From Escherichia phage LLS, in the sequence record PQ299149: a DNA stretch of 42,883 nucleotides; one strand, given 5' to 3'. Position 1 is the first letter of the stretch. Each line of letters begins with the position of its first letter. Below, piece by piece: positions 1 through 117 of this stretch. The position numbers and the translations under genes are program-made. The notes under the pieces were generated by a model. It saw only the letters and a list, made by a program, of their open reading frames with translations, made no database searches and was not told where the DNA came from.

Positions 1-117
1 GGGCGGCGCGCTCGCGGGAAACGGCTAGTTTTTCGGATCCAGGGTCATCATCATCATGTGCGCAGGCCTTTGATTTAATTAGAGGCCATTTTCGCAAGAT
101 GTCGAATCGTTCAAAAA
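1..117 (+). other. cos region (cosN cohesive end 1-12 plus putative cosB terminase-binding region)
   Basis: GGGCGGCGCGCT at 1-12 differs from the lambda left cohesive end GGGCGGCGACCT at two positions; CGTTTCC-like motif (reverse of CGGGAAACGG at 13-25) just upstream of the small terminase gene. Confidence 0.6.

Follow-up and report, generated by a model that had tools for sequence, protein, structure and literature searches.

The window examined here is the whole record of Escherichia phage LLS, a genome of 42,883 bp deposited as GenBank PQ299149 (Genome Res 2025, PMC12315714). Its left end enters the terminase genes and its right end comes after the lysis genes, and the following features lie at the two ends:

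1 to 12, plus strand: cosN cohesive end GGGCGGCGCGCT, predicted to be a 12-nt 5' overhang; 10/12 positions as in lambda
42883/1 (joined form) and 12/13: predicted top-strand and bottom-strand nicks, respectively
13 to 18, plus strand: CGCGGG, in the place of the lambda I2 segment and identical to lambda nt 13-18
19 to 129, plus strand: putative cosB, the small-subunit binding region; kept in the E. coli relatives and, in part, in Klebsiella phage Kp4865-4
130 to 618, plus strand: small terminase subunit, TerS (Pfam DUF1441, E=1e-41; PHROG 141, E=1.4e-68)
618 to 2720, plus strand: large terminase subunit, TerL, of the lambda gpA type (Pfam GpA_ATPase, 1.6e-73; GpA_nuclease, 1.5e-83)
42128 to 42772, plus strand: orf214, the last gene before cos (PHROG 1349, unknown function, E=4e-105)
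42788 to 42822: perfect hairpin with a 13-bp stem and a T-run, 3' of orf214 (inverted-repeat search)
42855 to 42861, plus strand: cosQ heptamer GGGTCCT, the packaging-termination signal, present as a single copy in the window
42881 to 42883, plus strand: cosN right flank ACG, identical to lambda, whose CG lies on the 5' side of the top-strand nick

A preliminary description of this DNA had proposed that its first 12 nt are the lambda left cohesive end save for two positions. This is confirmed here by alignment to the lambda genome ends (locus L002), which served as the lambda reference for the cos comparison: GGGCGGCGCGCT in LLS and GGGCGGCGACCT in lambda were mismatched only at positions 9 and 10, and over the stretch from -3 to +18 (ACG/GGGCGGCG..CTCGCGGG, where the slash marks the nick) 19 of the 21 positions were the same. 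Taken alone, a 12-mer with two mismatches or fewer is not rare, since three were found genome-wide versus 4.1 expected. The weight of the match comes instead from its location exactly at nucleotide 1, a fixed place at which a cosN-like 12-mer has a chance of P ~4e-5, and from the conserved flanks. The same description held that the terminal CCACG mirrors the GTTACG of the lambda right end, and of this only the last part stood: the final three bases, ACG, are common to both phages and nothing further matches, which makes it a weak marker. A better one, absent from that earlier reading, is the sole GGGTCCT of the window, which ends 22 nt before the right end and matches in 7/7 positions the GGGTCCT at lambda 48473-48479, which we take to be lambda cosQ. 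Wieczorek and Feiss are said to have defined the lambda element in 2001. The distance from cosQ to the nick is 1 nt shorter in LLS than in lambda.

According to work on lambda-like phages, cosQ has 7 bp and is highly conserved, the CG dinucleotides beside both nicks are also highly conserved, and natural cosN variation falls in bp 7-12, with the left half of the overhang under selection (PMC4669245). LLS obeys these rules, keeping bp 1-6, differing at bp 9 and 10 and retaining ACG/G and T/CGCG at the nicks. The CGCGGG at 13-18, which provides the CG on the 5' side of the bottom-strand nick, was invariant in 6/6 aligned relatives, and GGGCGGCGCGCT itself was also found in mEp043, Eeyore, the E. 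coli 730V1 prophage and Klebsiella phage Kp4865-4. The cosN of N15 and phiD326 varies at bp 9 and 12, and that of Gifsy-1 at bp 8, 9 and 11 (Feiss et al. 2015, PMC4669245); the LLS changes at bp 9 and 10 follow the same rule of right-half variation with cosQ and the nick CG kept, although the varied positions are not the same. In E. coli Nissle 1917, a prophage whose terminase module is the same displayed the cosN variant GGGCGGCGTGCT and, for GGGTCCT, a degenerate cosQ (AGGTACT), so that packaging termination might be impaired in that element. Between cosQ and cosN, an inverted repeat (GGCAGG/CCTGCC, 42865-42880) is present in LLS and also in mEp043. Considered as a hairpin, it is not preserved by compensatory changes in other relatives (Eeyore, 730V1, Kp4865-4) and is not interpreted here.

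The start of TerS at position 130 was taken from the mEp043 annotation. By BLASTP, TerL and lambda gpA displayed 24% identity over 621 aligned columns with E=4e-18, and the published value is likewise E=4e-18 (PMC12315714). TerS had no detectable similarity to lambda Nu1 and yielded no alignment with it, and no lambda-type R3/R2/R1 repeats were found within 1-135; the idea of a lambda-type complex cosB with a Nu1-type subunit was therefore abandoned. Within the putative cosB there are, nonetheless, a (CAT)4 tract (44-57) and, on the minus strand at 63-75, an IHF-like site, AATCAAAGGCCTG, with one mismatch to the IHF consensus; the parts that we assign to cosB and to this site are presumptive. 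LLS and lambda thus have in common the 12-nt cosN, its ACG and CGCGGG flanks, cosQ, a near-identical spacing and a gpA-family TerL, and they differ in TerS (DUF1441 versus Nu1), in the R3/R2/R1 sites present in lambda cosB and in cosN bp 9 and 10. In other words, the cosQ and cosN of LLS, the elements read by the large subunit, are lambda-like, whereas cosB and its small subunit form a pair of another class. By analogy with known cos systems, a DUF1441-type TerS and a gpA-type TerL would bind the cosB region (approximately 19-129) in the concatemer, and initiation would take place there. Terminase would then nick the cosN strands 12 nt apart, the top one at 42883/1 and the bottom one at 12/13, leaving 5'-GGGCGGCGCGCT overhangs. 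Packaging would proceed rightwards from the terminase-gene end and would finish at the next cos, recognised through the cosQ GGGTCCT at 42855-42861 plus cosN.

The ends of the record call for some caution in this respect. The LLS nanopore assemblies lacked the ends around cos, the sequence was completed with a cos-spanning PCR product, and the 12-nt 5'-GGGCGGCGCGCT overhang was deduced from the grouping of TerL and from a putative mEp213 cos and homology to lambda (PMC12315714). Therefore, the record boundaries are a homology-based convention set by the depositors and no independent sign of a physical end. The proposal that they coincide with cos holds inasmuch as cosN and cosQ match lambda, but it was by homology that they were placed there (PMC12315714). 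Evidence of another kind was found in two contigs of the same IMG/VR sample. IMGVR_UViG_3300004808_000008 (17,660 bp) is 98.3% identical to LLS 1-2803 and begins at nucleotide 1 of GGGCGGCGCGCT, and IMGVR_UViG_3300004808_000009 (15,256 bp) finishes with ...GGGTCCTCCCGGCGGGGTGGCCTGCCACG followed by GGGCGGCGCGCT, that is, it stops at nucleotide 12; both are true contig ends. Considering that the 12-mer is present on both of them, we read these ends as filled-in 12-nt 5' overhangs, and a chance fall of both assembly breaks on precisely these two nucleotides is very unlikely. This evidence comes from one public virome-type sample and from a relative of LLS with the same cos; in a scan of metagenome contigs for further ends at cos, 37 contigs were returned and none of them stopped at cos. 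The contig ends of the relative support a 12-nt 5' overhang, and for this phage group what had been a homology-based deduction in the literature has now independent contig-end support, which is new here. In LLS virions, the exact overhang GGGCGGCGCGCT is a prediction from the sequence.

These contigs also bear on the possibility that the true termini differ from the record ends, either in overhang length or polarity or because the DNA is packaged by headfuls (pac) and its ends are permuted. Such a difference could be suspected from the way in which the overhang was deduced from mEp213 and lambda and the ends were missing from the nanopore assemblies (PMC12315714), from a TerL only 24% identical to lambda gpA and from a small subunit of a family other than that of Nu1. 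However, fixed ends would themselves predict that nanopore assemblies of virion DNA fail to close over cos, both gpA domains were recognised in TerL at E below 1e-70, and cosN with its flanks (19/21) and cosQ (7/7) match lambda at a near-identical spacing. Together with two contigs of a same-cos relative that stop exactly at nucleotides 1 and 12, this makes termini of another kind highly improbable, and argues for fixed ends at cosN.

We used the last 600 plus the first 600 bases of the window as a joined query to ascertain how the two ends stand to each other in other genomes. The alignment ran unbroken over the joint in eight phage records and in 36 E. coli chromosomes, in which it corresponds to prophages, and 83 of the 102 viral-contig loci had the LLS-type joint without interruption. 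In the relatives, the homology that spans the joint begins about 28-35 nt before the LLS right end, i.e., at cosQ (28-35 nt in the joint-query search; 29-35 nt of right-end homology by sensitive blastn). The first and last 1.5 kb had no common word longer than 10 nt, from which it follows that LLS has no terminal redundancy, and the contiguity of both ends in phages and prophages means that it has no host flanks. These results bear out the preliminary view of a unit-length genome cut at cosN. Host DNA, which would have contradicted that view, was looked for at the ends and none was found, the sole host-derived sequence being an internal ssrA-like segment at approximately 26465-26505. It could be argued that highly similar cos-terminase modules in 36 E. 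coli chromosomes point to an excised or induced prophage, or to a prophage cut from a bacterial assembly, possibly with host sequence at an end. Yet in those very chromosomes the last bases of LLS continue directly into the first ones and there is no host junction, the ssrA-like segment is internal, and the published source of the DNA is plaque-purified phage (PMC12315714), so that the probability of such an origin is practically negligible when compared with that of a genome linearised at cosN. The published description also counts 23 Chi sites, 20 of them in the same orientation (PMC12315714). We likewise counted 23 copies of GCTGGTGG in the window versus 1.4 expected, 20/23 being on the plus strand. 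The abundance of Chi is a published hallmark of this phage (PMC12315714), and the orientation bias agrees with the orientation of cos.

The nearest phages were mEp043, mEp213, Eeyore and Flotzy, with 98-99% identity to LLS over the first 3 kb, approximately 96% across most of the left arm and a mosaic right arm. These phages and the E. coli prophages share with LLS the cosN 12-mer, cosQ, cosB, TerS and TerL, at about 98-99% over LLS 1-3000, whereas the right arms and the integration modules of the mEp213/mEp043 group differ from those of LLS. The right-most 0.5 kbp of LLS has been described as very similar to mEp213 (PMC12315714). This was not reproduced here: neither megablast against mEp213 nor sensitive blastn against mEp043 extended the match beyond the final 29-35 bp. 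The gene nearest to the right-hand cos, orf214 (42.9% GC), depicted no similarity by sensitive blastn in any of five cos regions from relatives, no megablast match in the phage or E. coli sets among the matches listed, and nothing in Pfam, NCBIfam or PADLOC. The hairpin that follows it was not flagged (42788-42814) by the terminator scan.

A further difference from the mEp213/mEp043 group concerns the palindrome GATAATCATTATC, located some 5-8 nt upstream of cosQ in lambda and in 5/5 of the LLS relatives compared (mEp043, Eeyore, two E. coli prophages and a Klebsiella phage), with the variants GATAATTATTATC in the Nissle prophage and GATAATCATTATT in 730V1. It matches the Fur-box consensus GATAATGATAATCATTATC in 15-17 of 19 positions. 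In LLS 42800-42854 the palindrome is missing and the best match was 12/19, a loss accounted for by the mosaic joint lying exactly at cosQ. A full-text search of the literature disclosed no link of the motif to cos among the ten best matches. We consider it rather unlikely that GATAATCATTATC is an unrecognised functional element of cos, responsive to Fur or another host factor and acting at the end of the late operon or in packaging termination; were it so, LLS would be a natural deletion revealing what the element is dispensable for.

Inside the genome, the integration module and its surroundings present the following features:

25544 to 26305, plus strand: BRO-N/anti-repressor-like gene (Pfam Bro-N), which adjoins intact ssrA in lysogens
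26311 to 26342: terminator hairpin of the BRO-N gene
26402 to 26414, plus strand: candidate Int arm-type site GTCCTGCTGAGAC, in the arm on the BRO-N side
26465 to 26494, minus strand: attP core of 30 bp, made of the ssrA 3' end (29 nt) plus one downstream base, as read from lysogen junctions
26495 to 26505, minus strand: degenerate ssrA-like continuation, 9/11 bases, from alignment to ssrA in loci L016, L020 and L021
26525 to 27340, minus strand: orf271, located past the int stop and ahead of the attP core (PHROG 7259, unknown function)
26586 to 26598, plus strand: candidate Int arm-type site GTCCTACTGAGAC, in the int-side arm
27382 to 28557, minus strand: tyrosine integrase Int, 391 aa (Pfam Arm-DNA-bind_2 and Phage_integrase; PHROG 1)
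28518 to 28736, minus strand: excisionase Xis (PHROG 2917, E=1.3e-41)

The cos ends and the ssrA attP of LLS are already in print for this same genome (PMC12315714); to these the present analysis adds the position of cosQ, a core one base longer with its degenerate extension, lysogen junctions of both types, the distinct class of the cosB/TerS pair and the contig ends at cos. In the published work, a putative attP was located within bp 26,466-26,494 at the ssrA 3' end, the integration site having been deduced from a prophage with an Int of 99.7% identity (PMC12315714). The minus strand of 26466-26494 is indeed the ssrA 3' end, and the junctions described below lengthen the exact identity by one base. 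ARAGORN found no tmRNA gene in the window. Thus, the preliminary description was right in that the ssrA-derived segment is about 29 nt long, the exact core being of 30 bp, and not a full tmRNA gene, and in that both attP (26465-26494) and int are internal. The excisionase gene lies next to int.

To characterize the junctions we looked up the exact proteins of the module in public assemblies. The exact 391-aa Int was on nine contigs, including two other NCBI assemblies and several raw-read assemblies. In three of them (L005, L006 and L007) the phage arm is identical to the LLS minus strand through ...CGCGGGTTCAACTCCCGCCAGCTCCACCAA, the identity ends after 26465, and non-phage DNA with a terminator-like stem follows, as expected for the host region downstream of ssrA. 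The exact BRO-N protein was in 74 blocks of the assembly collection, and in seven loci (L016, L018, L019, L020, L021, L022 and L023) a complete tmRNA gene came after it, together with smpB. The ssrA-side junction was read in L016, L018, L020 and L021, with ratA, bamE and recN beyond it in addition to smpB; there, LLS equals ssrA from 26465 to 26494 and then in 9/11 bases to 26505. The limits of identity at the two junctions, 26465 and 26494, set the core at 30 bp. Int-side and ssrA-side junctions come from different assemblies, none with both, and with this qualification both types of prophage-host junction exist in public genomes. Accordingly, integration into the ssrA 3' end, as previously predicted, is corroborated by junctions of both types, read in lysogens with either the exact Int or the exact BRO-N protein. 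Intact ssrA adjoins the BRO-N end in these lysogens, and int and then orf271 are transcribed toward the ssrA remnant at the far end.

The candidate arm-type sites at 26402-26414 and 26586-26598 are direct repeats that flank the core and are alike in 12/13 bases, and a near-identical copy, TCTTGCTGAGAC, is found in lysogens in the same arm (BRO-N side). Int probably uses arm-type sites around these two positions. Similarity searches with Int yielded 69 loci of other species (L024-L092; Enterobacterales, Aeromonas and Pasteurellaceae) with homologues of 58-90% identity, and 52 of the 69 presented an ssrA 3' remnant on the same strand downstream of int. The remnant usually begins approximately 110-190 nt beyond the int match and tracks in sequence the 3' end of the host's own tmRNA, as exemplified by GGGTTCAAATCCCCCCAGCTCCACCA in Yersinia, Serratia and Aeromonas; no full tmRNA gene was found among the Int-side remnants examined. 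CP4-57 (IntA) and other ssrA elements have the same target as LLS and also regenerate the ssrA 3' end on integration, but the identity between CP4-57 IntA and LLS Int is just 17% (PMC12315714), and the position of int in LLS-type lysogens, at the end far from intact ssrA and transcribed toward the remnant, is a difference from CP4-57.

The published work has little on lysogeny, with a single mention of the word 'lysogen' (PMC12315714), and when 5,426 complete E. coli RefSeq genomes were searched by megablast with the int-orf271 module (26440-28760), the ssrA-like part alone was matched. Both observations would suit a different reading, in which the ssrA-like 30-mer is a relic and LLS integrates elsewhere or nowhere. 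This is scarcely credible in view of the three assemblies that carry the exact Int and join the phage arm, via the core, to DNA from downstream of ssrA, of the complementary junction with an intact tmRNA gene in the exact-BRO-N assemblies, and of the association of Int with ssrA in 52/69 homologue loci. An active ssrA attP is what these data favour, and LLS itself presumably lysogenises. In such a process, the LLS ends would anneal and be ligated after injection, and Int would recombine the 30-bp core at 26465-26494 with the identical 3' end of host ssrA, the phage copy restoring the gene. The predicted order is smpB, ssrA, core, BRO-N, tail, head, terminase, cos, orf214, lysis, immunity, xis, int, orf271, core remnant and host DNA, the prophage extending from BRO-N to orf271.

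Taking together the evidence on the ends and on the integration module, we believe, with a probability of about 0.93, that the window is the unit-length genome of the temperate lambdoid phage LLS in virion order, linearised at cosN, with an internal ssrA attP and integration into the 3' end of ssrA. In practical terms, annotators should not handle PQ299149 as a prophage with host flanks, the map of an LLS prophage is circularly permuted with respect to the record, and ssrA is the integration site to be expected. Beyond this correct bookkeeping, the cos-delimited reading of the record is of minor importance.

The gene between int and the attP core, orf271, is low in GC (35.7%; whole genome, 51.5%) and carries a hydrophobic helix at its N-terminus. 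It had no match in Pfam, NCBIfam or PADLOC, and its structural model (pLDDT 77) retrieved no PDB fold with Foldseek at E<=0.001. Its family is small (about 20 clusters), all its members are hypothetical proteins, and every member with a named source is from Enterobacteriaceae. Since most Int homologues have no gene at that position, orf271 looks like an inserted cargo gene, and one rather unlikely possibility is that this low-GC membrane protein, of unassigned fold, represents a new prophage-encoded function in exclusion or defence. In six of the Int-homologue loci (L035, L048, L056, L068, L080 and L082), 1.5-2.4 kb separate int from the remnant, and these long gaps suggest other cargo insertions. 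In locus L079, from Enterobacter sp. Bisph1, a complete tmRNA gene precedes a truncated int, of which residues 135-389 are left, and then a second ssrA remnant; this locus appears to be a decayed member of the same Int family.
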